From a virus (Duplodnaviria > Caudoviricetes), in IMG/VR virus record IMGVR_UViG_3300005758_000087, positions 17,683 through 81,682 of that record: a stretch of 64,000 nt of DNA, one strand, 5' to 3'. The notes below the pieces were generated by a model. The model made no database searches. It was not told the origin of the DNA and worked only from the letters and a program-made list of their open reading frames with translations. Positions 14,930-55,347 of the stretch are shown one piece after another. The translations under genes and the position numbers were made by a program. Numbering within the stretch: position 1 is the first letter of the stretch; every line of letters begins with the position of its first letter.

Positions 14930-17900
14930 TTAAAACGAAAAATTAGCCAATTCTCCGGTATTCAAGACACGAACAGGGATGTAAATAAATTCTGCTGCTT
15001 TCACTGGTTCAATCGCAACATCTATCCAAAGTTCATTTCTATCTATACGTGCCGGTGTGTTGTTGCTTTCGTCACATACCACTAAGTAGTCGAAAAGACC
15101 TCTCTTTGCAACTAAGTCAATGAACAATGACTGAACTACACCTGTTATTTCATTACGTGTTACAGAATCGTTAGGTTCAAACACAAATGGTCTTGCAGCT
15201 ACCTGCAAACGTTCACGAATGTATGCAACTAAACGAGCTACGTTGATTCGATCTAGTGCAGATTGACTATTAAAGCTATTTTTGTTTCCATAGTTTAATA
15301 AACCAACACCTGTAAAGAATGCCAATGGATTTATCTGATTAGTGTATAATACATCCCTTATGGACATACGATTCTTAATTGTGACAAATTCACCGGTAGC
15401 CGCATCTAAGTATCCAATATTAGTTGCGTTATCTATTGTACCCCTTCTTGTACCAGCTGGTGCAAACCAAGGATACGCAACGGTATCATTTCTTAATATA
15501 GTACGCAACATCATGTGACTTGCAGGAACAACAACTTCAGACCCAGATAGATCCGTTGTTATACCACTTGGATAGAATAGTCCCAAATAAGTATCACGTG
15601 TTACTAAACCATCTTCACCGGTTGAGGATGCACCTGCTTCATTATTTGCCCAATTGGTAATTGCTGTAGCTTGATCGGGCAATCTTAACGGTGTGTCACC
15701 GATAATATAAGCAGTGTTGTTTCTATCATTATTAAGAACTACCATATCTGGCTGTAATTCCGGATAGTTAGGACATGCAATCAAGTTAAAGAAGGTATCT
15801 TCTTCTCTTATACTTTGATTAGTGCCAATCGCTGCTTTTAGTGCCTGAACTACTACATTACGTTGAGCCTTACGTCCCATATATGGAGATCCGTTAGTCT
15901 TTAATCCGCTAGCACTTACCCATGTATACGAATATGAGGGTAAAGGACCTTCAGGGTAATTAGCAGCAGTAAAATAGTTTGTTCTAAATTGTTTTACATT
16001 ATATCCTGAACGGCGTGTGTTAAACAACAACATTCCCTGTGGGTACAAAGCTGGATCAGGCGCATCTAAATCTAAATAATTGCTGGTCAACAATGAAACA
16101 ATACTTGGTATAGGATCGCTTACTGGATCAGTTGTGCCGTTATTGGCCCAACGTGCATCTGCAAATAGTATACCATTTTGACTAGTTTGATCAGTGACAT
16201 CAATTCTTACCCATTGGTCTACTCCTTCTACTGCTTCCCAACGGCTGATCACTGGATAATTCTCTAAGTCGCTAGTGTCTAACCATAGATCACCATAGAC
16301 CAATGAAGTTCCGTCAGTTTGTGCTGTGGGTGCAGTAGTACTAATAATAGGACCTAGAGGATCTGTAGCATTTACTCCGGTTGTTATCGGATGTCCGGTA
16401 TTGTCATAGTTAGTATTTTTGTAGCCTATCCATGCTCCGTTTTTCTGCACCATTATATCTACTTGAGTTGCAGTACTATAGAACCAATTAGTGCCGTTCG
16501 CTGGGTTAGTCGCTGGCGCACCCTCATTAGCAATATAACTTATTTCTCTCCAATTAGATAACATTGTAGTTGGATTCAATCTAGGAGTTCCAGAATAGTA
16601 AGATACATCTACGACACCGCCTGCACTAACGTCTTGCACATATAACACTAAGTTATGTGCAGGAGTAACTCCGCCTATGTCCGCGCCTGCAATTGTTATC
16701 AAATCGCCAGCTGCGTAACCTGTACCAGGAGCTGTTAATGTGAACTCATAATAGTCACCCCAATTTCTAATAGTGAACTCTGCTCCGGTTCCTGAACCAG
16801 TTGTTGAAGATTGTGTTACGCCAACTAGTATAGGTGAAACGACAGGACCATAAGTAACACCTGGTGTTTGGAACGTGAAACCTATTTCGTCCAATAAACC
16901 ATTGCTTTGTTCACTCCCATCTACATCTAGTAAAATAATGTCGCCGCCTAATACGTGTTCTAATACAATGTATCCTTCATTAGACACACTTGCAGTAGTA
17001 TTAGGAATACCAGCTGCTAACCAAGAAGCAACAAATTCTTCAGCAGTTGGTCCAGTGGTAGTAACAGTGTAGACTGTAGGACCTGCATTAGGAACTAATG
17101 GAGTTTGACCTGGGGCCGAAACGATAACAAACAATTGTTGACCGCCAGTAATGCTAGGATTAGCAACTGTTCCCTGTACTATAGTAGGACCAACTGAAAA
17201 TCTACTTAATAATTTCATACCTACATTAGGTACAAATCTCGAAGGACCCATTGTAGCTATTACAGTGCCACTAGGTATAGATTTTCCACCTGAAGCATCA
17301 ATGTTAGCAGTAGCAACAGTAGGGTCACTGTAAATAGAAACGCTCTTATTCGCAAAAGAAGCAGTAGTATCGTCATACTGAGACACTAATAAGTTTGCAC
17401 CTTGTCCGGAAACGCTTGTTTTAATCCAAACTGAACCAGTAGGATGAGGCTGTGCTTGCCCTCTAGTCCAAAGTGGCATTTGAGCAGAATTACCAAACTC
17501 TACTTTAGGTGAATAATATGTTCCTACCTCAATACCCATATCAGTCAATGGAGTATTTGTAGTATTAGACAATGTAATGTAAGAATTGACGTTTCCTACG
17601 TCAGGATATCCTGATGATATCACTAGCAAACCGTTAAACACTACTGCACGTAGCCAACTATCATTGATATTATTAATTGCGTCTGCTACGTCTACTACGT
17701 TCCAACCACCATTAATAGTTATTGTTCTAGAATAAACGCCATTTACATTTATAGTAAACTCGTCTCCGCTTGTTAACACGGGGTTGGATACTGTACCTAA
17801 TACTGTAGGCTGAGACAATTTCCATTGGGTACTTCCTAATTCTACCCAATTATTAGCTATATTTTTATAGAAATATGTCGCACGTGAGTAAGAAAAACCT

Positions 17901-18478
17901 TCAATTTCAGTAGGAATTACTGCATAAGACCCTATTGTTCCCAAAAAGTCTGCAGGGAAGCCATCTACAATATTTACGGGATCAGTAATAACTATAGGAT
18001 TTTGTAAATTAAATTTTCCGGTATTTGCATTAAACTCGTAAATTCCCCATGTGCTATTAGTAGTGTCTAACCAATAGGTTCCGTTTTCAGGTGAGCCTAC
18101 CGGACGGCTTAGTGTGCCTACTAAACTTGCCATATCTACATCTGCACGAAGAACGAAGCAGCGGTTAGTGGCTCCTAAAACGGAATATGCCGCCAAAAGA
18201 CCATATTCATTAAGTTCATAACCTTGTATGCTAGTTCCGTTTGTTGTTTTGTAAAAAAATGGGTTGCCAAAAAGATTAACTAAGTCTCTTTGACTTGTAA
18301 CTTGATATAATTTGTTTGCATTTGCACTCGTTGTTGCAGGAGCAACTCCGGTTCCGGCTGCATTGGCCTTATTCTGTGCTGTAGCTAATAATATTAGCGG
18401 TACTGAGTTAGAAGATGCTGGAAGATATTGACTTTGATCAATAATTGAAACTTCTACTCCTGGAGATACTAGTGCCAT
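14930..18478 (-). CDS. gp18: Tail sheath protein with large insertions
   Basis: 1182 aa; MALVSPGVEVSIIDQSQY N-terminus; PWFAPAG.RRG, DRINVARL, FVFEPND C-terminal sheath motifs. Confidence 0.96.
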   Translation of the reverse strand: MALVSPGVEVSIIDQSQYLPASSNSVPLILLATAQNKANAAGTGVAPATTSANANKLYQVTSQRDLVNLFGNPFFYKTTNGTSIQGYELNEYGLLAAYSVLGATNRCFVLRADVDMASLVGTLSRPVGSPENGTYWLDTTNSTWGIYEFNANTGKFNLQNPIVITDPVNIVDGFPADFLGTIGSYAVIPTEIEGFSYSRATYFYKNIANNWVELGSTQWKLSQPTVLGTVSNPVLTSGDEFTINVNGVYSRTITINGGWNVVDVADAINNINDSWLRAVVFNGLLVISSGYPDVGNVNSYITLSNTTNTPLTDMGIEVGTYYSPKVEFGNSAQMPLWTRGQAQPHPTGSVWIKTSVSGQGANLLVSQYDDTTASFANKSVSIYSDPTVATANIDASGGKSIPSGTVIATMGPSRFVPNVGMKLLSRFSVGPTIVQGTVANPSITGGQQLFVIVSAPGQTPLVPNAGPTVYTVTTTGPTAEEFVASWLAAGIPNTTASVSNEGYIVLEHVLGGDIILLDVDGSEQSNGLLDEIGFTFQTPGVTYGPVVSPILVGVTQSSTTGSGTGAEFTIRNWGDYYEFTLTAPGTGYAAGDLITIAGADIGGVTPAHNLVLYVQDVSAGGVVDVSYYSGTPRLNPTTMLSNWREISYIANEGAPATNPANGTNWFYSTATQVDIMVQKNGAWIGYKNTNYDNTGHPITTGVNATDPLGPIISTTAPTAQTDGTSLVYGDLWLDTSDLENYPVISRWEAVEGVDQWVRIDVTDQTSQNGILFADARWANNGTTDPVSDPIPSIVSLLTSNYLDLDAPDPALYPQGMLLFNTRRSGYNVKQFRTNYFTAANYPEGPLPSYSYTWVSASGLKTNGSPYMGRKAQRNVVVQALKAAIGTNQSIREEDTFFNLIACPNYPELQPDMVVLNNDRNNTAYIIGDTPLRLPDQATAITNWANNEAGASSTGEDGLVTRDTYLGLFYPSGITTDLSGSEVVVPASHMMLRTILRNDTVAYPWFAPAGTRRGTIDNATNIGYLDAATGEFVTIKNRMSIRDVLYTNQINPLAFFTGVGLLNYGNKNSFNSQSALDRINVARLVAYIRERLQVAARPFVFEPNDSVTRNEITGVVQSLFIDLVAKRGLFDYLVVCDESNNTPARIDRNELWIDVAIEPVKAAEFIYIPVRVLNTGELANFSF

Positions 18479-19615: not shown

Positions 19616-20377
19616 TTAACCTATTATGAACGTGTAGGGCTGGCTGTAATCTACGAAGTTTTTGAGATCGATTAATAATTGTTCTTGCATAGCCTTACCC
19701 TCAGCTTTCAGTGCGGTTCCATTCAACGTAGTCCCCCCGCTGGGTCCCGCAATACTAGCAAATTTTTCTCTGGCTTCACCTAGAGTCATTTTAAGCTGAC
19801 TTAGTGTCCAATCGCCTATCCAAACACTTGCTCCGGGGTCCTGCAATAATTGTTGCTCAGGTCTAATGATATCAGCCCAAATTAATATTTGTTCGCCAGA
19901 ACCTTTGGGATCTCTAACTAGTTTTATTTGTTTAGTCACCGGATTAAATGTATAGATTACATATCCACCGAACATTCTAGCTGCCAATTCAATGTATTGT
20001 GCATAAAAGTCGTATGTGGCTAGCCCTCCGGCATAATTGTAATTTAGAAGATAGGTATTTAAAATAGCACTACTAAATGGGTCAAAACTGCTTGCTGCAG
20101 GACCAGTTTCCAATCCAACTGTTCGTCTAAATATTGCCCTGACGTTTATGAACTCTTCTGGTAAGGTATATACATTTACATTTTTTTCTATTTTCATTAA
20201 TGTATATGATTCCTGAGTGGAATTTTGTGCTCTCTGTCGATAGATTTTTATAGCATAGCGGTACGCTGCTTCATAATGCTCAGGATCTAACTCTACGTCT
20301 ACCATTCCGTCGCCTAATCGTAAACGTAAATTTTTAAATAATTCGTCTTTAAGTTCTTGTAAGTTATTGCCCGACAT
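19616..20377 (-). CDS. gp13: Neck protein
   Basis: LRLRLGDGMVDVELDPEHY; LGEAREKF..I.GP.GGTTLNG.ALK.E. Confidence 0.9.
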   Translation of the reverse strand: MSGNNLQELKDELFKNLRLRLGDGMVDVELDPEHYEAAYRYAIKIYRQRAQNSTQESYTLMKIEKNVNVYTLPEEFINVRAIFRRTVGLETGPAASSFDPFSSAILNTYLLNYNYAGGLATYDFYAQYIELAARMFGGYVIYTFNPVTKQIKLVRDPKGSGEQILIWADIIRPEQQLLQDPGASVWIGDWTLSQLKMTLGEAREKFASIAGPSGGTTLNGTALKAEGKAMQEQLLIDLKNFVDYSQPYTFIIG

Positions 20378-20396
20378 AGTATATTCCTTTATATAC

Positions 20397-20404
20397 TATT
20401 TATC
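20397..20404 (-). promoter_or_regulatory. Late promoter GATAAATA
   Basis: Upstream of gp13. Confidence 0.65.
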
Positions 20405-20412
20405 GGGCGTAT

Positions 20413-21045
20413 TTAAACAAACCTAACTAGATTATTTCTAGAAATTGCAGAATTGGACATTTTGATCAACTTTTTCATAGAAGCCGATGGTATTCTTAAT
20501 TTAACTTGATTTTCATTGTACTCTAGAACCATAAATTTGTTCGCGGCTCTGAAAGTTTGAAAAGGCGAGAATGTAACCTCACCGGTAATTTTTCTATGAA
20601 TCTTCACATAGTCAACTAGTTGCTTGTTAATATCCTCATACGCTTCTTCCATAATATACTGAATGTCAGGATAATTCAAATAGCATAAATCATACCTGAC
20701 TATTTTATTGATTTTTGCGTCATAAGCAACTAATAACAGTGCCTGAAGTTTTTGAAAAAACTTACTAGATTTATATGATTTTAACAAAAATTCAGATAAA
20801 GTTACTGTACCTATTGTCCAATTAGAATCAGATTCTATATTTTTTGATTTAATTTCTATTCCGTATTCTGATATATCTACTACGCCTTCAATATCAATTC
20901 TCAACTGTCGGCCGATATAATTGTGTATATATGTTCCCAAATGACTGGGATCTACCATGTCCTCAGGTAAGTTCAAGTCGTATAAAAATGCAAAGGTTTT
21001 TTCACTTAATCGAGTATTCATTGAATTACTTTTGGTAGAGGTCAT
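20413..21045 (-). CDS. Putative MutH/Sau3AI-fold endonuclease
   Basis: D.SEYGIEIKSK..WTIGT..KSSKFFQKLQALLLV resembles the MutH/Sau3AI core; start moved to ATG 21045. Confidence 0.5.
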   Translation of the reverse strand: MTSTKSNSMNTRLSEKTFAFLYDLNLPEDMVDPSHLGTYIHNYIGRQLRIDIEGVVDISEYGIEIKSKNIESDSNWTIGTVTLSEFLLKSYKSSKFFQKLQALLLVAYDAKINKIVRYDLCYLNYPDIQYIMEEAYEDINKQLVDYVKIHRKITGEVTFSPFQTFRAANKFMVLEYNENQVKLRIPSASMKKLIKMSNSAISRNNLVRFV

Positions 21046-21046
21046 G

Positions 21047-21478
21047 TTAAATATCCCCATCTTTACGGTTTTCACTATAGTGAGGATCAAAGTTTCCACC
21101 TGGGTATCGTGCTTCAAGCTTCTTGACATTCTCCGCAATTACTTCATTGGGATCTAAATCAAGTGCCCTACATGCGTTAATCCAATACCAAATAACATCT
21201 CCCAATTCTCTTTTCATGTGGTATACATTTTCTTCATTAAGTGGTTTGCCCTGAAAGAACATTTTTTTGGGAATTTCACAAAACTCACCTGTCTCTGCTG
21301 CAAGTCCTAATGCTGCTGTTAAAAGTAAAGGCACATTAATATCAGGTCCATGCGAGCCATCTTCACTACTATAATTTGCATCTAGTTCATCACAGCGGTT
21401 CATGAAAGTAGTTAAATCATTGCTTGATTTACTTGTTACCGCTTTTACAAAATCTTTATACTTGTTTAAGTCAATCAT
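21047..21478 (-). CDS. mazG: MazG-like NTP pyrophosphohydrolase
   Basis: GLAAETGEFCEIPKK..RELGDVIWY..NVKKLEARYP. Confidence 0.93.
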   Translation of the reverse strand: MIDLNKYKDFVKAVTSKSSNDLTTFMNRCDELDANYSSEDGSHGPDINVPLLLTAALGLAAETGEFCEIPKKMFFQGKPLNEENVYHMKRELGDVIWYWINACRALDLDPNEVIAENVKKLEARYPGGNFDPHYSENRKDGDI

Positions 21479-21657
21479 TCGTCATCATCTCCAAATAAAT
21501 ATGCTGCCATTTTTCGTTGTGTCGTGTCTGGATCCTTTTTTGCGCACTCAAAACAAATTTCTTCGTCATTAGGACCATATGGTCTACATTCATCAATTAC
21601 ACCACATATTTGACATGCTTGCGGTGGTTCTTCTGCTATAAATCCTCGCCCGCTCAT
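21475..21657 (-). CDS. Small CxxC protein
   Basis: 60 aa; CQICG..CFEC; coupled overlap. Confidence 0.7.
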   Translation of the reverse strand: MSGRGFIAEEPPQACQICGVIDECRPYGPNDEEICFECAKKDPDTTQRKMAAYLFGDDDE

Positions 21658-21660
21658 TTT

Positions 21661-21771
21661 CTACCCTTTAATCTGATTGGTAATTTTATTACATTTCTCA
21701 TACAAAACACCCATGCAAAAACCGAATCCTGTCCATCCTATAATCATTAGCGCGTACCAAATGTGTTTCAT
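21661..21771 (-). CDS. 36-aa membrane micropeptide
   Basis: Below the track cutoff; MKHIWYALMIIGWTGFGFCMGVLYEKCNKITNQIKG; starts at a GGAG junction. Confidence 0.65.
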   Translation of the reverse strand: MKHIWYALMIIGWTGFGFCMGVLYEKCNKITNQIKG

Positions 21772-21774
21772 TTT

Positions 21775-21972
21775 TCAACTCCGAAAAAGTGGAACACCGT
21801 CGGTTAACATCCTAACATAGATCAAGTTGGGAAAAGTGTCAAGTGTGCCACGATGCCGCTCAATTTTGATCGACCATTGTTCTGGGACTTCTGGGTCAGT
21901 TTCTAGACCATAGAAAAACTGATCCCGAGCACCCGATTCAATTTGCTGTTTGAAATACACTTCAATGTTCAT
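21775..21972 (-). CDS. Hypothetical protein
   Basis: 65 aa, tiled in the early operon. Confidence 0.7.
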   Translation of the reverse strand: MNIEVYFKQQIESGARDQFFYGLETDPEVPEQWSIKIERHRGTLDTFPNLIYVRMLTDGVPLFRS

Positions 21973-22142
21973 TTTAACAACTCCATAATGATAATAAAGA
22001 CACTGGGCATGGCAAAAACTAGTGCCAATGCCAAAAAAATGCTGTCACGATACCACGGAACATATGGAATATTCAATGTTTTACACAGTTCTTTATCGGA
22101 CATTTTGCTGACATCAATGTAGTGTACTTTTCGTTCGTTCAT
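21969..22142 (-). CDS. 57-aa protein with C-terminal transmembrane helix
   Basis: Below the cutoff; MNERKVHYIDVSK...IFLALALVFAMPSVFIIIMELLK; ATGA overlaps at both ends. Confidence 0.7.
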   Translation of the reverse strand: MNERKVHYIDVSKMSDKELCKTLNIPYVPWYRDSIFLALALVFAMPSVFIIIMELLK

Positions 22143-22282
22143 TCTTTAACTCCATTAACAATTTGCCATTTTCTAAAAGCACCCCAAGCAGTTGGAAAGT
22201 ATGTTGTTTGTGTTCCAATCAGATTACAACTCCATAAAGGTTCACCAAAATCTAATACTGTTTTATGCAAATGTGGTTTCAT
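22139..22282 (-). CDS. 47-aa hypothetical protein
   Basis: Below the cutoff; MKPHLHKTVLDFGEPLWSC...GVKE; ATGA overlaps at both ends. Confidence 0.65.
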   Translation of the reverse strand: MKPHLHKTVLDFGEPLWSCNLIGTQTTYFPTAWGAFRKWQIVNGVKE

Positions 22283-22506
22283 TCTTCAACTCCAAAATGT
22301 TCTGCTACATTACAAACACGATTGATAACTTCTAGCATCTTGCCATCACCTGGTTCGGGCAAGTCTTTACTGAATACTTCCATACATTCAGCCACAATCA
22401 ACTCAGCGAACTTTTCCAATTCGTCTGCATAGAATTGATACACACCTAGATTTTGTTTATGTGTTGATCCAGCCTGTTCAGCAAGTTCTCGAATTCGTTC
22501 GTTCAT
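22279..22506 (-). CDS. MNERI-family paralog A
   Basis: MNERIRELAEQAG..LEKFAELIVAEC..HFGVEE. Confidence 0.85.
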   Translation of the reverse strand: MNERIRELAEQAGSTHKQNLGVYQFYADELEKFAELIVAECMEVFSKDLPEPGDGKMLEVINRVCNVAEHFGVEE

Positions 22507-22670
22507 CAGTTAATCCCATCAAGATAAAATTTGTATTCCAGACGCATTGCTGCTTCAATTTCCGCATCAGCATCGATGTTATGAAGTTCTTGCAGTTGCG
22601 ACTTTATATCATCACCAAATGATACTGTGTATCGTTTACGCCATTCTTCGTATGTTAGTTTTTCGTTCAT
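22506..22670 (-). CDS. 54-aa protein with gp23-like HxxDADAE segment
   Basis: Below the cutoff; MNEKLTYEEWRKRYTVSFGDDIKSQLQELHNIDADAEIEAAMRLEYKFYLDGIN. Confidence 0.7.
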   Translation of the reverse strand: MNEKLTYEEWRKRYTVSFGDDIKSQLQELHNIDADAEIEAAMRLEYKFYLDGIN

Positions 22671-22897
22671 TCTTCAACTCCAAAATGTTCTTTAATAGTG
22701 TCGGCACAGTCCAGTACCCCACGACGATAATCGTAGCGATATCGGGTATCGGTTTCGTCCATGGATTTACATAATGCCATACATTCTCTCACAATCAACT
22801 CGGCGAATTTTTGCATTTCTTCATCAATGCCCATCGATTCAATAACAAAATCGTATAGTCCGGCCTGTTCCATCAGTTCTTTAATTCGTTCGTTCAT
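22667..22897 (-). CDS. MNERI-family paralog B
   Basis: MNERIKELMEQAG..KFAELIVREC..IKEHFGVEE; start moved to 22897. Confidence 0.85.
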   Translation of the reverse strand: MNERIKELMEQAGLYDFVIESMGIDEEMQKFAELIVRECMALCKSMDETDTRYRYDYRRGVLDCADTIKEHFGVEE

Positions 22898-22944
22898 CGC
22901 AATATCCATACAATAAGTACCACCCCAATCATAAACCAGAACAT
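22894..22944 (-). CDS. 16-aa hydrophobic micropeptide
   Basis: MFWFMIGVVLIVWILR; TAATG overlap upstream and ATGA overlap downstream, fills the gap exactly. Confidence 0.55.
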   Translation of the reverse strand: MFWFMIGVVLIVWILR

Positions 22945-23360
22945 TATACGCTCACTTCAAATCTAAAGTTGTCAGGATCATCTACTAGCTGAGATTCTTG
23001 TACCTCAGTCCATTTACCATCTATTCTAATTTCGATCTTAATTTTTGTCAACTCTTCGGCAACCTTGCGATCAATTTGGTCCAGCATACCAGTGCGCCTT
23101 AACGTTTCGAGCCGGTGCCATTCTTTGAATTCTTTCGTTTCGCACATTTTGACGAAGGCGTCTCTTCGGTTTTCAAGTTGACTACGGCTAGATTCACTGT
23201 AACCTTTGGCGCCTGATTCTCTATGGCGACAATGAACTGCACTTGAAGTTTTATTCTTTTTTTGTCCGCCACTTCCAGTTCCTCGTGTATAGCTCCAGTC
23301 ACAATCATCCTTGGTTACGCTAAACAACAGTTCACGTTTCTTTTCCATAATATTATCCAT
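22944..23360 (-). CDS. Stand-alone class I release factor GGQ domain (ArfB/PrfH-like peptidyl-tRNA hydrolase)
   Basis: YTRGTGSGGQKKNKTSSAVHCRH..SRSQLENRRDA; alternative start 23348. Confidence 0.88.
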   Translation of the reverse strand: MDNIMEKKRELLFSVTKDDCDWSYTRGTGSGGQKKNKTSSAVHCRHRESGAKGYSESSRSQLENRRDAFVKMCETKEFKEWHRLETLRRTGMLDQIDRKVAEELTKIKIEIRIDGKWTEVQESQLVDDPDNFRFEVSV

Positions 23361-23363
23361 TAG

Positions 23364-23753
23364 TTAAACTAAATCCACTTCTTTAGTCAATTCTTTTACA
23401 TACAGGTATGGCAATAGTAATAGTACAGCAGGATGTGGGTCTAGTTCAGACCACATCAATAGTTGGTCATAGGACATGTTTAGGTATTTCTCGCAGTTAT
23501 CGTAGGCAATAAAAGCTAGTATCGCGTCCCTTGCCGCATAACTTGCCGTATTCCATACCGCATCCATTGCCGCATTCAATGCCGCATCTTTTGCTGGATC
23601 CCCTGCCGCATAACTTGCCGTATTCCATACCGCATCCCATTTCGCACTTTTTGCTGAATCCCATGCCGTAATCCATGTGTCGGCGTTATCTTTCAATGTT
23701 TGGAGTACCCAATCAATATGCTTCGCATTTGGCAGTTTTGACCACTCAGACAT
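23364..23753 (-). CDS. MSEW-family Trp/Ala-repeat paralog 1
   Basis: MSEWSKLPNAKHIDWVLQ..(AVWN/TASY/AA)n..AYDNCEKYLNMSY..HPA.LLLPYL; start moved to 23753. Confidence 0.85.
   Translation of the reverse strand: MSEWSKLPNAKHIDWVLQTLKDNADTWITAWDSAKSAKWDAVWNTASYAAGDPAKDAALNAAMDAVWNTASYAARDAILAFIAYDNCEKYLNMSYDQLLMWSELDPHPAVLLLLPYLYVKELTKEVDLV
23532..23637. repeat. 34-nt exact direct repeat inside MSEW paralog 1
   Basis: 23532-23565 = 23604-23637 (72-nt period). Confidence 0.9.
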
Positions 23754-24213
23754 TTTCAATCTCTTTATCTTCGATCTTTTCTTTTACGAACAAGTACGGG
23801 AGCAACAGCACACAAGCAGGGTGTGGGTCTAGTTCAGACCACATCAATAGCTGGTCATAGGACATTTTTAGGTACTTCTCGCAGTTATCATACGCAATTA
23901 AGGCACGAAGCACACACCTTGCCGCCTCCATTTCTGTAACCCTTGCCGGATCCCATACTGCCGGATCACTTGACGCATCCGATATCTCATCCCATATCGC
24001 GAGCAATGCCGGATTCCATGCCTGCAACACATCCTCGTATGCCGTAACTCTTGCCGCCTGCAATATATCATCGTATGCCGTAACTCTTGCCGCCTTCAAC
24101 TCCCCATTCCTTGATGTGGTTAGTGACCCGGCCCATTCTTTGGGGTTATCTTTCAATGTTTGGAGTACCCAATCGATGTGCTTTGCGTTTTGTAGGTGTG
24201 CCCACTCAGACAT
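23746..24213 (-). CDS. MSEW-family Trp/Ala-repeat paralog 2
   Basis: Same constant ends; central AARVTAY repeats. Confidence 0.85.
   Translation of the reverse strand: MSEWAHLQNAKHIDWVLQTLKDNPKEWAGSLTTSRNGELKAARVTAYDDILQAARVTAYEDVLQAWNPALLAIWDEISDASSDPAVWDPARVTEMEAARCVLRALIAYDNCEKYLKMSYDQLLMWSELDPHPACVLLLPYLFVKEKIEDKEIENV
24035..24095. repeat. 25-nt exact direct repeat inside MSEW paralog 2
   Basis: 24035-24059 = 24071-24095 (36-nt period). Confidence 0.9.
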
Positions 24214-24637
24214 TCGCAGTCTCCTTGCTTCTGGTTTCTTCTTTTACGAACAAGTACGGAAGTAACAAAACACAAGCAGGGTGTGGATCTAACTTATTCC
24301 ACATCAGTAATTCCTCATATGACATGTTTAGGTACTTCTCACAATCATCATACGCAATTAAGGCGCGAAGCGAACCCCTTGCCGCCTTCCATGTCGCCTC
24401 CCATACCGTACTCCTTACCGCACCTCTTGTTCCGATCCATGCCGCATCCCAGGCCTCTTCTCGTCCCGCATCCCATATCGCGAGCAATACCGCAGCCCTT
24501 GCCGAATGCCATGCCGCAATACCTACTACGGGTTTCGCTGCGGTCCATGCATTAACCCACGTGTCGAGATTAGCGTTTACTGACTGAAGTACCCAGTCAA
24601 TATGCTTCGCATTTGGCAGATGTGACCATTCGCTCAT
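24206..24637 (-). CDS. MSEW-family Trp/Ala-repeat paralog 3
   Basis: Same constant ends; central AW/IWDA repeats. Confidence 0.85.
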   Translation of the reverse strand: MSEWSHLPNAKHIDWVLQSVNANLDTWVNAWTAAKPVVGIAAWHSARAAVLLAIWDAGREEAWDAAWIGTRGAVRSTVWEATWKAARGSLRALIAYDDCEKYLNMSYEELLMWNKLDPHPACVLLLPYLFVKEETRSKETANV

Positions 24638-24879
24638 TTTTCAACTCCGAAAGTTGGTTGCGGATATCCAAAACGATCCTCAATTAGTGATACATAGTAT
24701 CCTGCTTTTCTTGTTTCACTTTCCATTATTGAGTTGGCGCATTCAGCAACAATCAACTCGGCGAACTTTTCCAATCCGTCGTAGGTATAAACCATACAAC
24801 CTTTTTCGCCGCCAACATGTTGATTGAGATCAACAAAACCTTTAGCCTGTTCAGCAAGTTCTCGAATTCGTTCGTTCAT
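24634..24879 (-). CDS. MNERI-family paralog C
   Basis: MNERIRELAEQA..LEKFAELIVAEC..FGVEK. Confidence 0.85.
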   Translation of the reverse strand: MNERIRELAEQAKGFVDLNQHVGGEKGCMVYTYDGLEKFAELIVAECANSIMESETRKAGYYVSLIEDRFGYPQPTFGVEK

Positions 24880-25058
24880 GCATTCCTCAATCCTATTCTA
24901 CTATATCCAAGTTTTGATTTAGTTTCTCGACGGCTTTCTCTTTGATTACCAAATCGTTTTAAACAAGCAAGGTAACCTGCTAGGTAGCTATCCCAGTCTA
25001 ATTTGGAATCTTCTGCAACATAATCTCGCTTGACTCGTTCGACGAATTCTGGTGTCAT
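24876..25058 (-). CDS. Hypothetical protein
   Basis: 60 aa; starts at a GGAGTTGAAGAATGA junction. Confidence 0.7.
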   Translation of the reverse strand: MTPEFVERVKRDYVAEDSKLDWDSYLAGYLACLKRFGNQRESRRETKSKLGYSRIGLRNA

Positions 25059-25061
25059 TCT

Positions 25062-25382
25062 TCAACTCCACCTCAATAACCAAATAGTTTTTTCATGAGG
25101 ATCATTGAACCTTAGTCTCAGATCCCATTTCATTTTGTCGGTATTGTAGTACTGTTCTACAGTATAGTTACCGGGATACTTCTTCTGCATCCACTTATAT
25201 GCATTGGCTTCGATGTCTGCTTCGGTAACAGTGGTGGTGCCGCCTGCTCCCACTACACCATTGATACCGTTGCCCAATCTACTCAAATAACTCTGCCAAG
25301 TATCCTTAACAGGTTGTGGAATGTTTGAAGCATAAAAGGCTCCTGCATCTGATGTAGAAGTTCCCTTGTATCTCACGGTCAT
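25062..25382 (-). CDS. Chimeric small protein: gp23-like N-terminal peptide plus F..D/E..F.L.W domain
   Basis: TVRYKGTSTSDAGAFYA N-terminus; C-terminus LRFNDPHEKTIWLLRWS. Confidence 0.75.
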   Translation of the reverse strand: MTVRYKGTSTSDAGAFYASNIPQPVKDTWQSYLSRLGNGINGVVGAGGTTTVTEADIEANAYKWMQKKYPGNYTVEQYYNTDKMKWDLRLRFNDPHEKTIWLLRWS

Positions 25383-25624
25383 TCTTCAACTCCGAAATGT
25401 TGTTTAATCTTCTGACTGGCATTTTGTATAGTCCAAAAATAGGGGTCGCTATCTTCAGGATCGGCCATGTCATCTACAACTGCTACACATTCTCTCACAA
25501 TCAATTCGGCGAACTTTTCTAATTCAGATTCAGCAACTTCATATTTGGTCGGGGTTCCAGAAAACTGAAATGAAGATAGATTTACTCCAGCCTGTTCAGC
25601 AAGTTCTCGGATTCGTTCGTTCAT
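25379..25624 (-). CDS. MNERI-family paralog D
   Basis: MNERIRELAEQAG..LEKFAELIVREC..IKQHFGVEE. Confidence 0.85.
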   Translation of the reverse strand: MNERIRELAEQAGVNLSSFQFSGTPTKYEVAESELEKFAELIVRECVAVVDDMADPEDSDPYFWTIQNASQKIKQHFGVEE

Positions 25625-26815
25625 TTAGAAGCACCTCAAGATGATCATATTTTCATTAAAGCGACCGTTTGGTTGAGTCACTACTGCTTTGATGCTATCA
25701 AAGAATTTACGTGCTGCAGGTTTACTACCCATCACCTCTTTAATTTGCTCACCTGGCTTACGAAGTGTTTTAACTTCACTTTTAGCGGTATCGAAGCCAA
25801 GAATTGTATTACCCTTTACAGTGAAAGTCTGACTGTACTGGTCAGCAATGTAGTGATGTAGTTTGCGTTTTGCAGTGTCATATACCCACGCTTCACTAGC
25901 ACCATGCAGTTTAGTAGGATGCACACTTACCAGATCAAGCTTGAGTGCAGGATCCTTATACTCTTTGAGGTACTTGAGTTTAGCTACAATTTTCTCTACC
26001 GGTACAGGCTTCCGCTTACGTGGAGTCTTTGCTGCCTTCTTCACACTGATATAACTATTGAGGTCGCTCATTACCGTTTCAATAGCTTTAATCATGTTTT
26101 TGATTTGCACCTTGCCGAATTGACTGTAACCTTCAACTAGTTGCGGGTCTTTACCTTCTTGCACTTCTTCAAACTCTGTTAGAGTTTTCTTCCAAGTATC
26201 TAGGATAATAGGAATATGTTGCGGAAGAATATTATACTTTGCAAGAATGTCAATAGGCTTGCCCGGCAAGCTTCCTTTTGCACCTGCAATAACAAACTCG
26301 TCAAACAAGCCAGCAATCTCGCCTGCTGCTTCACGTGTTTTTTCTTTCATAATTTCTTGAACGTTAGGGCGATTTACCGGTTCTTTTTCTTCTACTTCAA
26401 TTTCTTGAGGCGTCAGTTGCGACTTAAACACAGTTTCAGGCTTGTGTACACAAGTCATGAGCCGGGTCAATTCATTTTGCAGCGACATTTCCTCATGTTC
26501 GGTAAGTTGCAAGCCGCGCAACGTCATACGTGCTAGCCAACCATATGTACTAAGAATTTCGCTTTCGGGTACTTTAGCTAGTACTTTTGCATCGGCTTTT
26601 CGGTCATTGTATTCCATATATTGGATCATCAATTCTTTGGCTTCTTTTCTACCATAAAAACGATTGTACCAACCAAATGCTCGGGCTAGTGCGCTTGTAC
26701 GGAATTCTGGATCTGGCTGGACTGCAAAGAATGGCTCGTCACCAGTGTATTTTGTGTCGGGGTCTTTTGGATTTAGGGCTTTAATGTATTGATCTTCTGA
26801 TTTCTTTTTAGCCAT
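25625..26815 (-). CDS. Conserved myophage early protein of unknown function
   Basis: 396 aa; first gene after a perfect sigma70 promoter; C-terminal WVYDT.KRKL..FTVKG.T..GFD..KTLRKP block. Confidence 0.8.
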   Translation of the reverse strand: MAKKKSEDQYIKALNPKDPDTKYTGDEPFFAVQPDPEFRTSALARAFGWYNRFYGRKEAKELMIQYMEYNDRKADAKVLAKVPESEILSTYGWLARMTLRGLQLTEHEEMSLQNELTRLMTCVHKPETVFKSQLTPQEIEVEEKEPVNRPNVQEIMKEKTREAAGEIAGLFDEFVIAGAKGSLPGKPIDILAKYNILPQHIPIILDTWKKTLTEFEEVQEGKDPQLVEGYSQFGKVQIKNMIKAIETVMSDLNSYISVKKAAKTPRKRKPVPVEKIVAKLKYLKEYKDPALKLDLVSVHPTKLHGASEAWVYDTAKRKLHHYIADQYSQTFTVKGNTILGFDTAKSEVKTLRKPGEQIKEVMGSKPAARKFFDSIKAVVTQPNGRFNENMIILRCF

Positions 26816-26845
26816 AATTTGCTCCTATACTTAATGATGTTGATG

Positions 26846-26874
26846 ATTATACATGAATCTCATTTTATTGTCAA
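26846..26874 (-). promoter_or_regulatory. Sigma70-type early promoter
   Basis: TTGACA-17 nt-TATAAT, perfect consensus. Confidence 0.9.
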
Positions 26875-26881
26875 GTGTTGT

Positions 26882-26889
26882 CATAAATA
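26882..26889 (+). promoter_or_regulatory. Late promoter CATAAATA
   Basis: Upstream of gp14, divergent from the early promoter. Confidence 0.6.
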
Positions 26890-26908
26890 TAATTAACAGG
26901 ATTATAAC

Positions 26909-28828
26909 ATGCCACGAATATCATTATATCGCCCCGAAAAAGCAAACGATTACAAATTTCTTGATAAAACTATAAAAGAAATGTTGGTTGTGGGCGGAAC
27001 GGACTTATATGTACATAAATATTTAGGAGTAGCCAACACCGGACCAAGTAGAGATTTCACACAACCGCAATATGATCAATTAGACCCTACCAATATTCAA
27101 GACTTGCTATTTTTAGAAAACCGAGATAGAAAATACGATAGCACTATTTACAGAATTCGCGGGCATTATAATGTACAAAATTTAGATTTTGATTTAAGTC
27201 AATTTGGGCTATTTTTAAATAACGATATTGTTTTCATTACCGTGCATTATAACGAAATGATTGAATTATTGGGTAGAAAACTAATGGTAGGTGACGTTTT
27301 AGAATTACCTCATCTAACAGATTATCATCCATTAAATGACCAAATACCAATTGGTCTGCGCAGATACTATCAAATAACTGATGCCAACTTTGCCAGTGAA
27401 GGATTCAGCCAAACTTGGTATCCGCATCTGTGGAGAATCAAATGTGAGCCATTGATTGACAGCCAAGAATTTTCTAACATTCTCAGTCAGCCACTAGAAA
27501 AAGATAATTATTTAGGAGACTGGGATTCTACTAAAGAGTACATAGCAGGATATACGGTAACATATGGCGATAACACATACACTCCCAAATTACCCGGCCC
27601 GGTGCCGGCAGGAATCGCACCCACTGACAATACATATTGGGAGCTTAGCACTGCTGATAATTTAAGAGATATAATAGCCAGATATAATAAAAACATAGAA
27701 GTTAATAACGCAGTTATAGCAGAGGCTGCTAGACTAGTTCCTAAAAATGGCTATGACAGAAGCCAATTATATGTAGTACCCACGCAAAATGGTGAGCCAG
27801 CACCCCCAGTAAATATAGTAGTTTCACCCGGAAGTCCTACTCCAACCCGAGCTACGGTATTCATGATGCGAAGTAGTGCCTATAGCAATCCTAGTCCGGT
27901 ATTACGAATCGGTGCAGAAGCTAGAAAAAAACTCTTTGAACTTAGCACAGATGACCAAAATGCCTTGCGCGAATTTATTGCATTAAGTTTAAAAACCGCA
28001 AAATTAAATCCCGAAAGGACTGATACTGGAAGCGGGCAGGTCGACGGTACTCTAGTGCTGACTGCCAAAGCAAATGGACCAATAACCGGTCCATATGGGA
28101 CTGCGGATAATACATATAGCACCGCTGATCAGTTTCCTCCGTTTACTGTAACTAGTTCTATAAATATTCCCATAAGAAGTCAAACTATTTCGATTTTAGG
28201 GTTAGAACCTAACCAAGACATAGCACCACAAAATTTAATTAGTGCCGCGGTTACTAGCTTAGCCGGAATAACAAATAACATATTTGCAGAAAACACAAGA
28301 GTAGTAAGTGTTAATAAGTTAAACAACACCTTTACTATTGATAAACCCACAATTTATGCTATGCCTGCTGGTACTGCTATTAATGTCGAACCAAATTTTG
28401 ATCTTACTAAAAATCCAATAAGTTTGCAAATGAATTATAGGGCGGACTGTGATCCTAGATTTGCATATATAGCGCGTAGTACACCAAACGGATTTGGTTA
28501 TAGTGATGGATACATGATCGGCGACGGTACTGCTCCAAACGGGTTACCAGTTGGCTCAGGTATTGTGTTTCCGGCTAATCCCAATTTAGGAGATTACTTC
28601 TTAAGAACTGATTACTTACCTAATTTATTGTATAGATATGACGGAAATTTATGGGTAAGAATAGGTGTTAATACACGTTCTAGTGTAGGATTCGAGAGTA
28701 CTGATCCTAGCAATCAATCACAAATGGCTAGCTTTATCAATAACGAACAAACACTTACATTGACTGACGGAACTGTTATACCACAGCAACAACCCCTAAG
28801 CTCAATTTTAACTATACAACCGGATTAA
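26909..28828 (+). CDS. gp14: Neck/head-closure protein with extra C-terminal domains
   Basis: IQDLLFLENRDRKYD..DLSQFGLFL..GDVLELPHL; 639 aa with a WDSTKEYIAGYTVTY CBM-like insert. Confidence 0.8.
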   Translation: MPRISLYRPEKANDYKFLDKTIKEMLVVGGTDLYVHKYLGVANTGPSRDFTQPQYDQLDPTNIQDLLFLENRDRKYDSTIYRIRGHYNVQNLDFDLSQFGLFLNNDIVFITVHYNEMIELLGRKLMVGDVLELPHLTDYHPLNDQIPIGLRRYYQITDANFASEGFSQTWYPHLWRIKCEPLIDSQEFSNILSQPLEKDNYLGDWDSTKEYIAGYTVTYGDNTYTPKLPGPVPAGIAPTDNTYWELSTADNLRDIIARYNKNIEVNNAVIAEAARLVPKNGYDRSQLYVVPTQNGEPAPPVNIVVSPGSPTPTRATVFMMRSSAYSNPSPVLRIGAEARKKLFELSTDDQNALREFIALSLKTAKLNPERTDTGSGQVDGTLVLTAKANGPITGPYGTADNTYSTADQFPPFTVTSSINIPIRSQTISILGLEPNQDIAPQNLISAAVTSLAGITNNIFAENTRVVSVNKLNNTFTIDKPTIYAMPAGTAINVEPNFDLTKNPISLQMNYRADCDPRFAYIARSTPNGFGYSDGYMIGDGTAPNGLPVGSGIVFPANPNLGDYFLRTDYLPNLLYRYDGNLWVRIGVNTRSSVGFESTDPSNQSQMASFINNEQTLTLTDGTVIPQQQPLSSILTIQPD

Positions 28829-50348: not shown

Positions 50349-51371
50349 TTAGTGTGCCCTCATGCACGTACTCTCAGTTAGCATTTTCCAATTATTAGGA
50401 GAAATTTTAACCAAATCCGCAATCTTAAGACACATCCGCAGGCTAATTTCACGCAGACGGGCACGATTTTCCCACATGAAACTCATAATTTCTTCTGCTT
50501 CACCGTTGACGAAATTATAATCCTGAAAAAGATTGTTATCACGGTGAACCTGCTTAATGCGAAGCATTTTGTCCCTATCATTATTGATAGTGAGATCCAA
50601 ATAGTGGCAACGTGACTGCAATGCTTCTAGATGATCCTGCAATTTTTTAGACCTAAGATTTTCAAACTTAAGGTTTGTGATAAAAATTGCAGATCCCTGA
50701 AAATTAAAGCTATTAGGGATACCCTCGTCACGCAGTAGTCGAGAATCACTATTCCAACAAATTTTACGATTCTTACCTGAATCTAGTGCAGCCTTAAGAA
50801 TGTTCAGCGCCAAATCATCCATAAAAATAGAATCGCAGTCATCAAATACCAGTACATTTTTCTTGTCTGAATATTTGTATAGCTGGGCATACAAGCCCAA
50901 TGCTGTCATAGCACCCTTAACTACTTCATAACGAAGCCTTTTTCCAGCGATGCGGTCAAATGTGCTAGCCTTTTCCATTTGTCGTTCAACACCGTAACTT
51001 TTGCCTACGCCCGGCGGGCCAGAAACAATCATCGCCCTAATGTCGCCGGCGATACATGCACGAGACATTTCATCAAGTACTTCGAACCTAGTTGCGATTC
51101 TATTCATAGCCTGTTCATCTGTTTCTGTTTTTTGAACAGTCTCACCTTTATTTTCGGTCAATGCCATCCTGTCTCCGTTAACAAACTCAATTTGATCAAT
51201 ACTATCAACTTTAATTTTAATTTCATCAATGGCAACATCAAAATGTCCTTGATTTTTTACAGTAACATAGTTACCCTTTTTGCCTGTTTGAAATCCTTTG
51301 ACTAGAGTAAATGTTTGGTCGACAACCGGACGATTACGATAGGTACCAGAAATAATTTTAATAGCTGACAT
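50349..51371 (-). CDS. AAA+ ATPase
   Basis: GPPGVGKS Walker A; VFDDCD Walker B; LQSRC arginine finger. Confidence 0.9.
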   Translation of the reverse strand: MSAIKIISGTYRNRPVVDQTFTLVKGFQTGKKGNYVTVKNQGHFDVAIDEIKIKVDSIDQIEFVNGDRMALTENKGETVQKTETDEQAMNRIATRFEVLDEMSRACIAGDIRAMIVSGPPGVGKSYGVERQMEKASTFDRIAGKRLRYEVVKGAMTALGLYAQLYKYSDKKNVLVFDDCDSIFMDDLALNILKAALDSGKNRKICWNSDSRLLRDEGIPNSFNFQGSAIFITNLKFENLRSKKLQDHLEALQSRCHYLDLTINNDRDKMLRIKQVHRDNNLFQDYNFVNGEAEEIMSFMWENRARLREISLRMCLKIADLVKISPNNWKMLTESTCMRAH

Positions 51372-51401: not shown

Positions 51402-51430
51402 ATTATATACGATATTGATTTTTATGTCAA
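51402..51430 (-). promoter_or_regulatory. Sigma70-type early promoter
   Basis: TTGACA-17-TATAAT, perfect consensus. Confidence 0.9.
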
Positions 51431-52640: not shown

Positions 52641-52883
52641 TTACCAATCATCTTCATCAGAATCTTCATAGTCTTCATAGTCTTCATCTTGGTCATGTTC
52701 CTCAATGTAGGCTTTTAAAGCATTGCGTATATCCTTATCATTAAACGAATTTTTAATTTCATCCGTTTCATAATTATTGTCAATTAATAAATTTACCAAA
52801 ACATCCGCTGCTTCTGAACGACTATTAAAATCAATATGGTCTCTCAATGCGTCCCATACCTCTGCTACTAGGTCTAAGCTCAT
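52641..52883 (-). CDS. Small acidic hypothetical protein
   Basis: 80 aa with D/E-rich tail. Confidence 0.7.
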   Translation of the reverse strand: MSLDLVAEVWDALRDHIDFNSRSEAADVLVNLLIDNNYETDEIKNSFNDKDIRNALKAYIEEHDQDEDYEDYEDSDEDDW

Positions 52884-53947
52884 TCTACATTCTCCTCTTC
52901 AGTAGTAACAGTACTTAGCTGATTCGCCCCCTTTTTCTGATATTCTGTCATAACTTTATCTAGGCAACCTTCTGAATTAGTTTCCCATCCCTTACGGAAA
53001 AGCTTGATAACTTCGCCCTCTTCGGTAGTATATGAAAGTCTATTACCTTCTTTTACTAACAAGTTTGCTTTCTCAAAAAGATCAAGCAATCCACTATAAG
53101 GGTTCATTCCAGTAGAATAAGGGATTTTAACCTGTACACTTTCAAAAGGTTTAGCATATCGTGTTTTCATAACCTTACAAGCAGAGCGAATACCTAAAAC
53201 TTCGCTTACCTTGTTACCGTCTTCGTCTTCTTTTAACTTAAGTTTTTTCATAGCAACAACAATGCTTGATGCGTAGATAAAACCTTGACCACCGCTAATT
53301 TTATCATCCGGATCAAACATATCCTGACTAGCATATGTGTGATTAGTTGCCACAAGTCCCACGTTATGGCTACCAAACATATTAACACAATTTCGAACCA
53401 ATGCAGTTAGTGCTTTGGGTTTACGACCCATATCACCCTTCATATCACCTGCTTCGAACTGATTAACGTCAGTTGGCGTTAACAGCATACCAAGTGAGTC
53501 GATAATAAACAACACCTTAGGTCGCTCACCGTCCGGCATAGCCCTATATCCTTTCATAAACTCACTAATAGTTTTAGCCACATCATCAATCATGGCCATA
53601 TTTAATTTTAGTAATTTATCTTCACTAGTATCAACTCCTAAATTATGAAGCCAATCTTCGTCAAGGGCGTTTTCACTATCAACGAGTACAACGAATATAC
53701 CTTGTTGCTGAGCATGCCTGACGAGATTTCCTGAACAAATATAGCTTTTTCCTGAACCGCTTTCACCAGCGAATACAGTAACTTTGCCAAGAGGCACGCC
53801 TTTGTGGAAATCACCGCTAATAAGATAATTAAGTGCGTAATTTCCTGTGCTAATCCAATCAGTAGGGTCATTAAATCCAATGCTCAATCCTTCAATGCTT
53901 TTTGTAATATCTTTTCTAAACTTTGCTACATCAAACGGCTTTACCAA
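52880..53947 (-). CDS. uvsX: RecA-like recombinase UvsX
   Basis: GESGSGKS; DSENA; IIDSLG; SGG.GF.YASS; start moved to TTG 53947 (SD GGAGA). Confidence 0.95.
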   Translation of the reverse strand: MVKPFDVAKFRKDITKSIEGLSIGFNDPTDWISTGNYALNYLISGDFHKGVPLGKVTVFAGESGSGKSYICSGNLVRHAQQQGIFVVLVDSENALDEDWLHNLGVDTSEDKLLKLNMAMIDDVAKTISEFMKGYRAMPDGERPKVLFIIDSLGMLLTPTDVNQFEAGDMKGDMGRKPKALTALVRNCVNMFGSHNVGLVATNHTYASQDMFDPDDKISGGQGFIYASSIVVAMKKLKLKEDEDGNKVSEVLGIRSACKVMKTRYAKPFESVQVKIPYSTGMNPYSGLLDLFEKANLLVKEGNRLSYTTEEGEVIKLFRKGWETNSEGCLDKVMTEYQKKGANQLSTVTTEEENVE

Positions 53948-54188
53948 TTTTATCTCCAATCTTAGATACGTTAGTAGTGTGAACTCCAAACGGTTGTTTG
54001 TCAAGTAACTCGGGGCATTTTTCAGCAATAATATCAATTTCCCAATCAAGTGGAAAATGTCTAAGTGCTGTTCTAGCCTTGTCTCTCACTGTGCTGGGAA
54101 CTCTGGGAGTTTTGCCTGGATCACATAATTCTTCTAACAATTTTTTACCTTGCTTGAGGGCACGGTATCTTTCATCACTTGTTGTCAT
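53931..54188 (-). CDS. Small conserved hypothetical protein (BPSL0761-like)
   Basis: MT..DERYRAL..TPRVP..VR..AR..LRHFP. Confidence 0.75.
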   Translation of the reverse strand: MTTSDERYRALKQGKKLLEELCDPGKTPRVPSTVRDKARTALRHFPLDWEIDIIAEKCPELLDKQPFGVHTTNVSKIGDKIGKAV

Positions 54189-55319: not shown

Positions 55320-55347
55320 ATTATAACACTAGCTTCAAAAGTGTCAA
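55320..55347 (-). promoter_or_regulatory. Sigma70-type promoter with extended -10
   Basis: TTGACA-16-TATAAT with TGn; a late GATAAATA sits at 55351-55358. Confidence 0.85.

Follow-up and report, generated by a model that had tools for sequence, protein, structure and literature searches.

Three described systems of T-even and T4-type phages come closest to the subject of this report, a group of four small genes, here termed MNERI genes, in a 64,000-nucleotide stretch of a virus record (IMG/VR IMGVR_UViG_3300005758_000087; Duplodnaviria, Caudoviricetes; positions 17,683 to 81,682 of the record, hereafter the window). The promoter-early stem-loop (PeSL) cassettes of the hyperplastic regions of T4-type phages are intergenic repeats with a sigma-70 promoter and a terminator stem-loop, and modular shuffling is held to result from recombination between copies (Arbiol et al., 2010, PMC2839356). 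The gp38 tail-fibre adhesins of T-even phages carry hypervariable segments between conserved glycine-rich motifs (Trojet et al., 2011, PMC3157838). The T-even internal proteins share a capsid-targeting sequence (CTS), and at least IPI* among them acts as a block on a restriction enzyme of the host (PMC3012670).

The MNERI genes resemble each of the three in part and are a member of none. Like the PeSL cassettes, their constant boxes are brief DNA repeats flanking small genes of early type, mostly unknown, in large myoviruses; they too are held to mediate shuffling, and the third of them carries a Shine-Dalgarno sequence and a start codon at its 3' end. Unlike the PeSL cassettes, the boxes lie inside coding sequence, without intergenic space. 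As in gp38, constant motifs separate interchangeable variable segments in one small protein and form its structural core, but gp38 is a single-copy virion adhesin, whereas the MNERI proteins are multi-copy, helical and encoded in an operon of early type. As with the internal proteins, a small and very diverse set has a short constant N-terminus; in the internal proteins the leader alone is common, whereas the MNERI proteins share three boxes, the first of which lies within the predicted fold, and since boxes 2 and 3 are conserved too, their bodies are not unrelated to one another. Membership in the three groups is denied because the joints hold no promoter or stem-loop, glycine-rich motifs and a virion context are missing, and three boxes are shared rather than a leader alone. 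Comeau et al. are said to have treated the PeSL cassettes as well, in 2014, and Repoila et al. (1994) is reportedly a source on the internal proteins. The account favoured here, which we hold to be probable when its parts are taken jointly, is that MNERI genes are shuffled mosaics, are coupled to their followers through the last box, and encode a common scaffold.

All four MNERI open reading frames (ORFs) lie on the minus strand of the window and encode proteins of 75-81 residues. An earlier note, made from the letters of the window, had proposed that they share a constant-variable-constant-variable-constant design, and the alignment bears this out: the four ORFs are present, and none of the 23 invariant columns of the protein alignment falls outside the three boxes MNERI.EL.EQA (box 1), KFAELIV.EC (box 2) and FGVE (box 3), between which lie the variable segments V1 and V2. 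The box 1 DNA is identical in copies 1 and 3 (36/36 nucleotides) and matches at 35/36 in copy 4, just as had been stated. Among the four copies, DNA identity amounts to 78-100% in the boxes, 37-54% in V1 and 46-58% in V2; random pairs drawn from the wider family give a mean of 44% (maximum 67%) for V1 and 47% (maximum 70%) for V2, so that the variable segments of the window copies are no more alike than those of random pairs. The gradual divergence of the variable parts, which the earlier note had set against its own proposal, was not seen. A profile of the four copies matched exactly these four genes in the 81,682-nucleotide virus record. The first 14 nucleotides of box 1, ATGAACGAACGAAT, have six matches in the window at up to two mismatches, against 0.60 expected. 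Two small unrelated ORFs of the minus strand also open like box 1, namely 21969-22142, which starts MNERKV (13/14 nucleotides of the box 1 start) and ends in a hydrophobic helix, and 22506-22670, with the N-terminus MNEKL; these starts may be a trace of box 1 exchange or a favoured start context.

The four genes are members of an unannotated, multi-copy phage family of very large size, with proteins of about 75-85 residues, a circumstance that the earlier note had overlooked. Of 8,000 candidates scored with a profile of the four copies, 7,830 proteins reached E<=1e-3, and relatives are encoded in 487 of 625 pattern-matched stretches of IMG/VR. A family hidden Markov model (HMM), built from the 120 best database matches and run on 80 fetched loci and the window, recovered 279 ORFs, with up to ten inside one 12-kb locus. 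A Pfam domain is absent from all 120 relatives listed; the four copies have no match in Pfam, 140 members give a best E of 0.00092, in one member, and NCBIfam holds no match for the family. A tblastn search of copies 4 and 2 against 50,697 GenBank phage records gave no match, even at E<=1. The sole PHROG match of the four copies, that of copy 1 to phrog_15865 'sigma factor' (E 0.0042), was too weak to use, and the tick salivary proteins found as best match in the PDB by sequence (E 0.31) were rejected. Foldseek against the PDB gave no match at E<=0.001 (best E 1.6), and a VIA-align fold search reached a Z of 5.5 at best, for generic helical hairpins. A fold search of BFVD returned uncharacterised proteins of uncultured phages only, themselves family members, and the ESM Atlas unnamed viral clusters only. 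In the full text of the literature, supplements excluded, the peptide words FAELIV and HFGVEE were found in none of the papers listed, MNERI returned species names and the like, and publications on hyperplastic regions, cyanophage, small ORFs, recombination and conserved motifs yielded no description of the family.

The relatives indicate that V1 and V2 travel apart from one another. Division into boxes and variable segments was possible for 221 of the 279 family ORFs (58 could not be divided), which together with 118 of the 120 database matches yielded 302 unique combinations of V1 and V2; these were then grouped into clusters at 70% identity. At least two V2 partners are found for 24 of the 189 V1 clusters (at most 46, for the V1 of copy 3), and at least two V1 partners for 37 of the 217 V2 clusters (at most 15, for the V2 of copy 4). 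Three independent four-cycles, or four-gamete rectangles, occur in the bipartite graph of V1 and V2, and window copies 1 and 4 figure in two of them. In the first, the V1 segments of copies 4 and 3 are each found both with the V2 of copy 4 and with a further V2; in the second, the V1 segments of copies 1 and 3 are each found both with the V2 of copy 1 and with a further V2. The remaining four-cycle stems from adjacent paralogs that show a reciprocal swap of V2 between two related contigs (L047 and L034); in both genes the DNA is near-identical through box 1, V1 and box 2, and the switch is confined between box 2 and box 3. Many-to-many pairing is found at 90% clustering as well (13 V1 and 22 V2 clusters), and also among the locus-derived genes alone (18 V1 and 22 V2 clusters).

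At the level of DNA, copy 1 shares V2 with one relative (L057; V1 36%, V2 90%) and V1 with another (L011; V1 89%, V2 46%), and copy 3 shares V1 with a third (L073; V1 91%, V2 46%). The breakpoint lies inside box 2, where identity changes abruptly between about 90% and background, and cassettes recur in different phages at 79-91% identity. The earlier note's idea of constant boxes around interchangeable parts, reshuffled by recombination within the boxes, is upheld: sequence comparison indicates that cassettes are exchanged between genes and phages with crossovers in the boxes, and that half-genes swap at box 2.

Whole MNERI genes also sit at different sites of related backbones. On a locus whose helicase is 78% identical to that of the window (L003), five copies lie upstream of the homologue of window gene 50349-51371; another locus (L058) has three copies between that homologue and the helicase, and a third (L028) has three downstream of a UvsX homologue; the window has no MNERI copy at any of these sites. 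Contigs from four metagenome runs, at >=90% identity, pile up on the four MNERI genes only, with a summed contig depth of 10^2-10^3 on the genes against about 0 between them, and their loose ends at 22506, 22897, 24879 and 25379 coincide with gene borders.

Codon choice sets the boxes apart from the remainder of each gene. In 201 unique genes, box codons are nearly fixed and are often a minority codon for the same residue in the variable regions, as in lysine AAG (0.89 in boxes, 0.28 in V regions), phenylalanine TTC (0.74, 0.20), alanine GCC (0.84, 0.21), glutamate GAG (0.84, 0.19), glycine GGA (0.95, 0.28) and arginine CGA (0.86, 0.21); the codon comparison shows the boxes to be conserved as DNA, silent positions included. 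An RNA structure behind this conservation was considered and rejected, as box-to-box duplexes fell within 1 standard deviation of shuffles and whole-gene minimum free energies had z scores of -0.86 to +1.04. The variable segments range from 9 to 56 residues (V1) and from 14 to 53 residues (V2). Synonymous to nonsynonymous changes within clusters stand at 499:185 for V1 and 229:152 for V2, where about 0.25:1 is expected by chance; the observed ratios are biased to purifying selection by the setting of clusters on amino-acid identity. On these counts the segments appear to be discrete cassettes under purifying selection. Across 217 cluster representatives a helical hydrophobic pattern is maintained on either side of V2, so the V2 segments are taken to be structurally analogous, and 27 of the 217 V2 clusters have a cysteine seven residues before box 3.

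Box 3 doubles as the joint to the next gene, which the earlier note had passed over together with the fact that the same word ends unrelated ORFs. The gene end G-V-E-E-stop, GGAGTTGAAGAATGA, holds a Shine-Dalgarno GGAG and, after a 7-nucleotide spacer, the ATG at which the following gene starts; this ATG and the stop codon overlap as ATGA. A 14-mer of this junction, GGAGTTGAAGAATG, has eight matches in the window against 0.59 expected, seven of them on the minus strand between 21769 and 25393 with at most one mismatch (Table 1) and the eighth elsewhere on the plus strand with two. The word is not specific to MNERI genes, for it ends three unrelated ORFs of the same operon (junctions at 21769, 22140 and 25056), in a different frame at 21769 and 25056 and in the family's own frame, as ..GVKE, at 22140. 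Across the family, the ATGA overlap is present at 185 of 249 unique gene ends and the exact 15-mer at 101 of 249; the ORF coupled downstream in the 185 cases is non-family in 102, family in 50 and absent at >=40 residues in 33. Among 201 occurrences of the junction word in the loci (<=1 mismatch), 160 end family genes, 24 other ORFs and 17 none. Because the ribosome-binding site and start codon of the follower are built into box 3, every family gene comes with a ready-made translational joint to the gene behind it.

In having a Shine-Dalgarno sequence and a start codon towards its 3' end, and in its association with variable small genes and with shuffling, box 3 resembles a PeSL cassette. None of the 20 promoter-like sites of the operon region coincides with any of the seven junction words; since the genes abut or overlap (ATGA, TGATG, TAAATG), there is no room for a promoter between them. 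Four terminator-like sites lie in 20300-27100, against 4.4 expected, and none stands at a junction. In place of one cassette per gene boundary, the MNERI genes have one promoter for the whole operon and a joint at the level of translation, and the crossover in box 2 splits the gene into exchangeable halves. As to gp38, no sequence or fold similarity was found and a virion role is without support: the MNERI boxes are helical rather than glycine-rich, and in place of a late fibre locus the genes have an operon with MazG and small ORFs behind a sigma-70 promoter. When the largest neighbouring ORF was scanned at 66 loci (66 of 151 candidate ORFs, one per locus), its best PHROG match fell in DNA, RNA and nucleotide metabolism in 27 (ligases, helicases, exonucleases and polymerases) and in the tail class in 2, with 20 lacking a match.

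Table 1. Positions, in window coordinates, of the MNERI genes, the junction words and associated features
Feature	Position	Strand	Detail	Source
MNERI copy 4, 81 aa	25379-25624	-	box 1 25589-25624, V1 25517-25588, box 2 25487-25516, V2 25400-25486, box 3 25382-25399, stop 25379-25381	ORF list, alignment, profile
MNERI copy 3, 81 aa	24634-24879	-	box 1 24844-24879, V1 24769-24843, box 2 24739-24768, V2 24655-24738, box 3 24637-24654 (TFGVEK variant), stop 24634-24636	ORF list, alignment, profile
MNERI copy 2, 76 aa (80 aa if started at 22909)	22667-22897	-	box 1 22862-22897, V1 22811-22861, box 2 22781-22810, V2 22688-22780, box 3 22670-22687, stop 22667-22669	ORF list, alignment, profile
MNERI copy 1, 75 aa	22279-22506	-	box 1 22471-22506, V1 22414-22470, box 2 22384-22413, V2 22300-22383, box 3 22282-22299, stop 22279-22281	ORF list, alignment, profile
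Junction word	25380-25393	-	ends copy 4, opens ORF 25062-25382	
Junction word	25056-25069	-	after unrelated ORF 25062-25382, other frame (..RWS*); opens ORF 24876-25058	
Junction word, 1 mismatch	24635-24648	-	ends copy 3, opens MSEW paralog 24206-24637	
Junction word	22668-22681	-	ends copy 2, opens ORF 22506-22670	
Junction word	22280-22293	-	ends copy 1, opens ORF 22139-22282	
Junction word, 1 mismatch	22140-22153	-	after unrelated ORF 22139-22282; opens ORF 21969-22142	
Junction word, 1 mismatch	21769-21782	-	after unrelated ORF 21775-21972, other frame (..FRS*); opens ORF 21661-21771	
Sigma-70 promoter, perfect consensus (TTGACA-17-TATAAT)	26846-26874	-	12/12 positions; head of MNERI operon	
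Other perfect sigma-70 sites (TTGACA, 16-18 nt, TATAAT)	51402-51430, 55320-55347	-		window scan
UvsX-like recombinase	52880-54049	-	phrog_97, E 1.6e-67	

Structural models were obtained with AlphaFold2 from a 140-row alignment of our own making. Copy 4 was modelled with a pLDDT of 85.2 and a pTM of 0.72 as helices at residues 3-11, 32-53 and 61-77, with V1 as a less confident loop; the model of copy 3 (pLDDT 70) repeats helices 1 and 2 and places two short strands in V1. The earlier note had envisaged variable loops upon a conserved helical bundle, which the models favour for V1, a loop or small hairpin, and contradict for V2, predicted to run from the distal half of helix 2 through the turn into the proximal half of helix 3. 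A two-copy model gave an ipSAE of 0.52 (0.52, 0.52 and 0.57 in separate runs) against 0.00 for the best of three controls; among proteins of solved structure, 20 of the 30 homo-pairs and one of the 23 single chains attained that mark, counts that hold only roughly here because our own alignment was used. The runs share at least 90% of their contacts, and the pLDDT of the partners is 70-75. The modelled interface is made up of the near-invariant residues F38, A39, I42, V43, E45, C46, H76 and F77, with box 1 also within it, and C46 contacts both C46' and H76'. The models thus suggest a three-helix unit that would pair into a symmetric dimer through its constant residues, perhaps with a metal site or a disulfide common to both chains at C46 and H76.

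The virus record is that of a large contractile-tailed phage (CheckV completeness estimate 24%), with profile matches to a tail sheath and tube, a terminase, a DnaB-like helicase, a primase, a UvsX-like recombinase, a gp32-like single-stranded DNA-binding protein and MazG; the MazG gene, at about 70% DNA identity to T4-like cyanophages, was the sole match of a 6-kb blastn search. The four MNERI genes lie in a tightly tiled minus-strand operon that runs from 26815 to about 20413 and also holds several tiny ORFs and MazG. Perfect sigma-70 sites number three in the window against 0.09 expected and are likely early promoters of the phage; since one of them heads the operon, the latter would be transcribed early by the host RNA polymerase from that site. 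The T4 late-promoter word TATAAATA does not occur within 20000-27000 and is under-represented in the whole window (4 against 11.9 expected). Among public sequencing runs that hold this DNA, no RNA run was listed, and the DNA runs have small shares (0.05-0.13), so that no habitat was assigned from them.

Taken together, each MNERI gene is a mosaic in which box 1, V1, box 2, V2 and box 3 follow one another. The exchanges would be brought about by homologous recombination on the 18-36-nucleotide boxes, presumably by the phage's own UvsX-type machinery; box 3 supplies the stop as well as the ribosome site and the start of the next gene. In the protein, the constant residues would form the dimer interface, and V1 with the tip of the helix 2/3 hairpin would give a variable surface, by which the proteins might bind variable host factors during take-over or counter-defence. 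The last step, close to the binder repertoire against host targets that the earlier note had conjectured, is put forward tentatively, as a possibility on which we would not rely. A more elaborate version is rather doubtful: the paralogs would pair freely, with surfaces directed against host factors of defence or take-over that vary, perhaps around a Cys2His2 site of C46 and H76 from both chains. In this version any two paralogs in a cell could pair, because the interface is built from the constant boxes.

Several points weigh against the account favoured here. The four-cycles are lost at clustering of 80% identity or more; the database candidates were picked by shared 5-residue words, a choice that preferentially brings in matches with a V segment in common with any of the four queries and so makes the partner numbers of the window cassettes too high; and the synonymous ratio is biased in the manner stated above. 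All relatives come from metagenome assemblies, in which 30-36-nucleotide repeats could in principle give chimeric joins. The copy 3 fold is weak, with a pLDDT of about 51-53 in the C-terminal third, and the dimer rests on a model score. Promoter-like sites of all kinds in the operon region occur at chance level (20 against 18.9 expected), expression and function of the family are predictions from sequence and models, and no link of the family to any defence or host protein was found.

The rival that survives best holds that these are carrier genes: selection would keep the box DNA, as a portable joint and as recombination handles, for any small cargo, and the mini-protein itself would matter little, in a translation-level counterpart of the PeSL cassettes. 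The junction word does end non-family ORFs (three within the window, of which two are read in a different frame, and 24 of 201 occurrences in the loci), the follower is non-family in 102 of 185 coupled cases, the silent sites of the boxes are fixed, and the longer relatives, 14 of 91 inspected, look like heterogeneous read-through fusions with followers. Set against this are the signs of purifying selection on the V1 and V2 cassettes and their recurrence at 79-91% DNA identity in different phages, the position of box 2 in mid-gene, where no joint is needed, and near-invariant residues that give a coherent predicted fold and dimer interface. We regard it as unlikely to be the whole explanation, though it is compatible with the shuffled, coupled scaffold rather than exclusive of it.

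A second rival takes box 1 for a leader like the T-even capsid-targeting sequence, so that the proteins would be packaged, trimmed by the prohead protease and injected as a diverse anti-restriction set. I-R-E and L-A-E in box 1 resemble the L/I-x-E cleavage motif of that protease, and the MNERI proteins are about as long as IPI*, with its 76 residues. Boxes 2 and 3 are as conserved as box 1, for which a leader gives no reason, and box 1 is placed in the predicted dimer interface; moreover, the promoter is of the sigma-70 type, the late-promoter word is missing around the operon, and the neighbours in other phages are mostly replication genes, which leaves this reading with a very small share of our confidence.

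Ordinary paralogs with a conserved core and fast-diverging loops, in want of no special recombination, would agree with the helical hydrophobic pattern kept at the V2 flanks of the 217 representatives and with the fast divergence common in small phage proteins. This reading is already contradicted by near-identical cassettes found with unrelated partners in both directions and by the four-gamete rectangles, by the abrupt step in DNA identity inside box 2, and by silent-site codon choice in the boxes opposite to that of the variable regions; we give it hardly any credence. Assembler chimeras at the box repeats could be suspected, given that the relatives are all from short-read assemblies and the boxes are near common k-mer lengths. 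The same reassorted proteins, however, recur on several contigs (P0106 on 20; P0011, P0032 and P0098 on 6 each; P0026 on 4), and for this reason chimeras are unlikely as the source of the mosaics. Sequencing reads are typically longer than a box; the parts shared by L047 and L034 differ by scattered substitutions, as in diverged genomes; and the four window copies stand on one 81.7-kb contig with their frames intact, so that even less weight falls to this explanation. Targeted hypermutation, by a diversity-generating retroelement or another mutator, would suit hypervariable segments between constant ones and is already contradicted by V segments that differ in length, are unalignable rather than point-mutated and recur unchanged as cassettes in other phages, with no reverse transcriptase (PF00078) in the 81.7-kb record, about 24% complete, and it retains a vanishingly small probability.

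Among the 14 longer relatives inspected there are tandem units and zinc ribbons as well as parts of methyltransferases and a halogenase; they look like products of read-through at the overlapping stop and start, and as a clue to function the fusions were set aside for want of a consistent partner. Some longer relatives (P0130, P0141, P0149 and L028:6001-6357) carry a C-terminal cysteine-rich zinc ribbon past box 3, and one is annotated Lar_restr_allev (PF14354); these point to anti-restriction as a possible lead.

Several other features of the window deserve mention. Within the operon are three tandem paralogs of another small family (23364-23759, 23746-24213 and 24206-24637, minus strand), with a constant N-terminus MSEW.HL.NAKHIDWVLQ, a constant C-terminal half and a variable middle rich in alanine, tryptophan and aspartate repeats; their single family match is phrog_8332, of unknown function. 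Metagenome contigs fuse 23314-23504 to 24160-24628 and 23467-23585 to 24050-24327, and because distant parts are joined in this way, copy number or mosaicism would vary in these paralogs too. The operon also encodes a 138-residue protein (22944-23360, minus strand) with an RF-1 domain (peptidyl-tRNA hydrolase, ArfB-like; PF00472, E 2e-12; phrog_3122, E 4.4e-23). Between MazG and the run of small ORFs lies a 60-residue ORF (21475-21657, minus strand) with two CxxC pairs, zinc-ribbon-like. The tail sheath (14930-18478, minus strand) is unusually long, at 1,182 residues, and sheath profiles match its C-terminal half only (637-1175).

The MNERI family comprises thousands of unannotated genes in aquatic phage metagenomes, often several per genome, and thus ranks among the more sizeable portions of viral dark matter whose logic can be read. 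Three short DNA blocks would be at once the protein core, the crossover points and, in box 3, the translational joint; because the boxes serve these combined roles, half-genes, whole genes and foreign cargo could be swapped without breaking expression. The idea of modular shuffling is thereby extended from the intergenic regulatory cassettes of the PeSL type into coding sequence, and a natural scaffold with two exchangeable segments comes into view. Should the paralogs indeed pair freely as a combinatorial set of binders, n genes would yield up to n(n+1)/2 different two-faced surfaces, and half-gene shuffling within and between phages would renew a population-wide mix-and-match repertoire. If the proteins bind host factors, the catalogue of cassettes would be a map of the conflict between phages and their hosts in lakes and estuaries.

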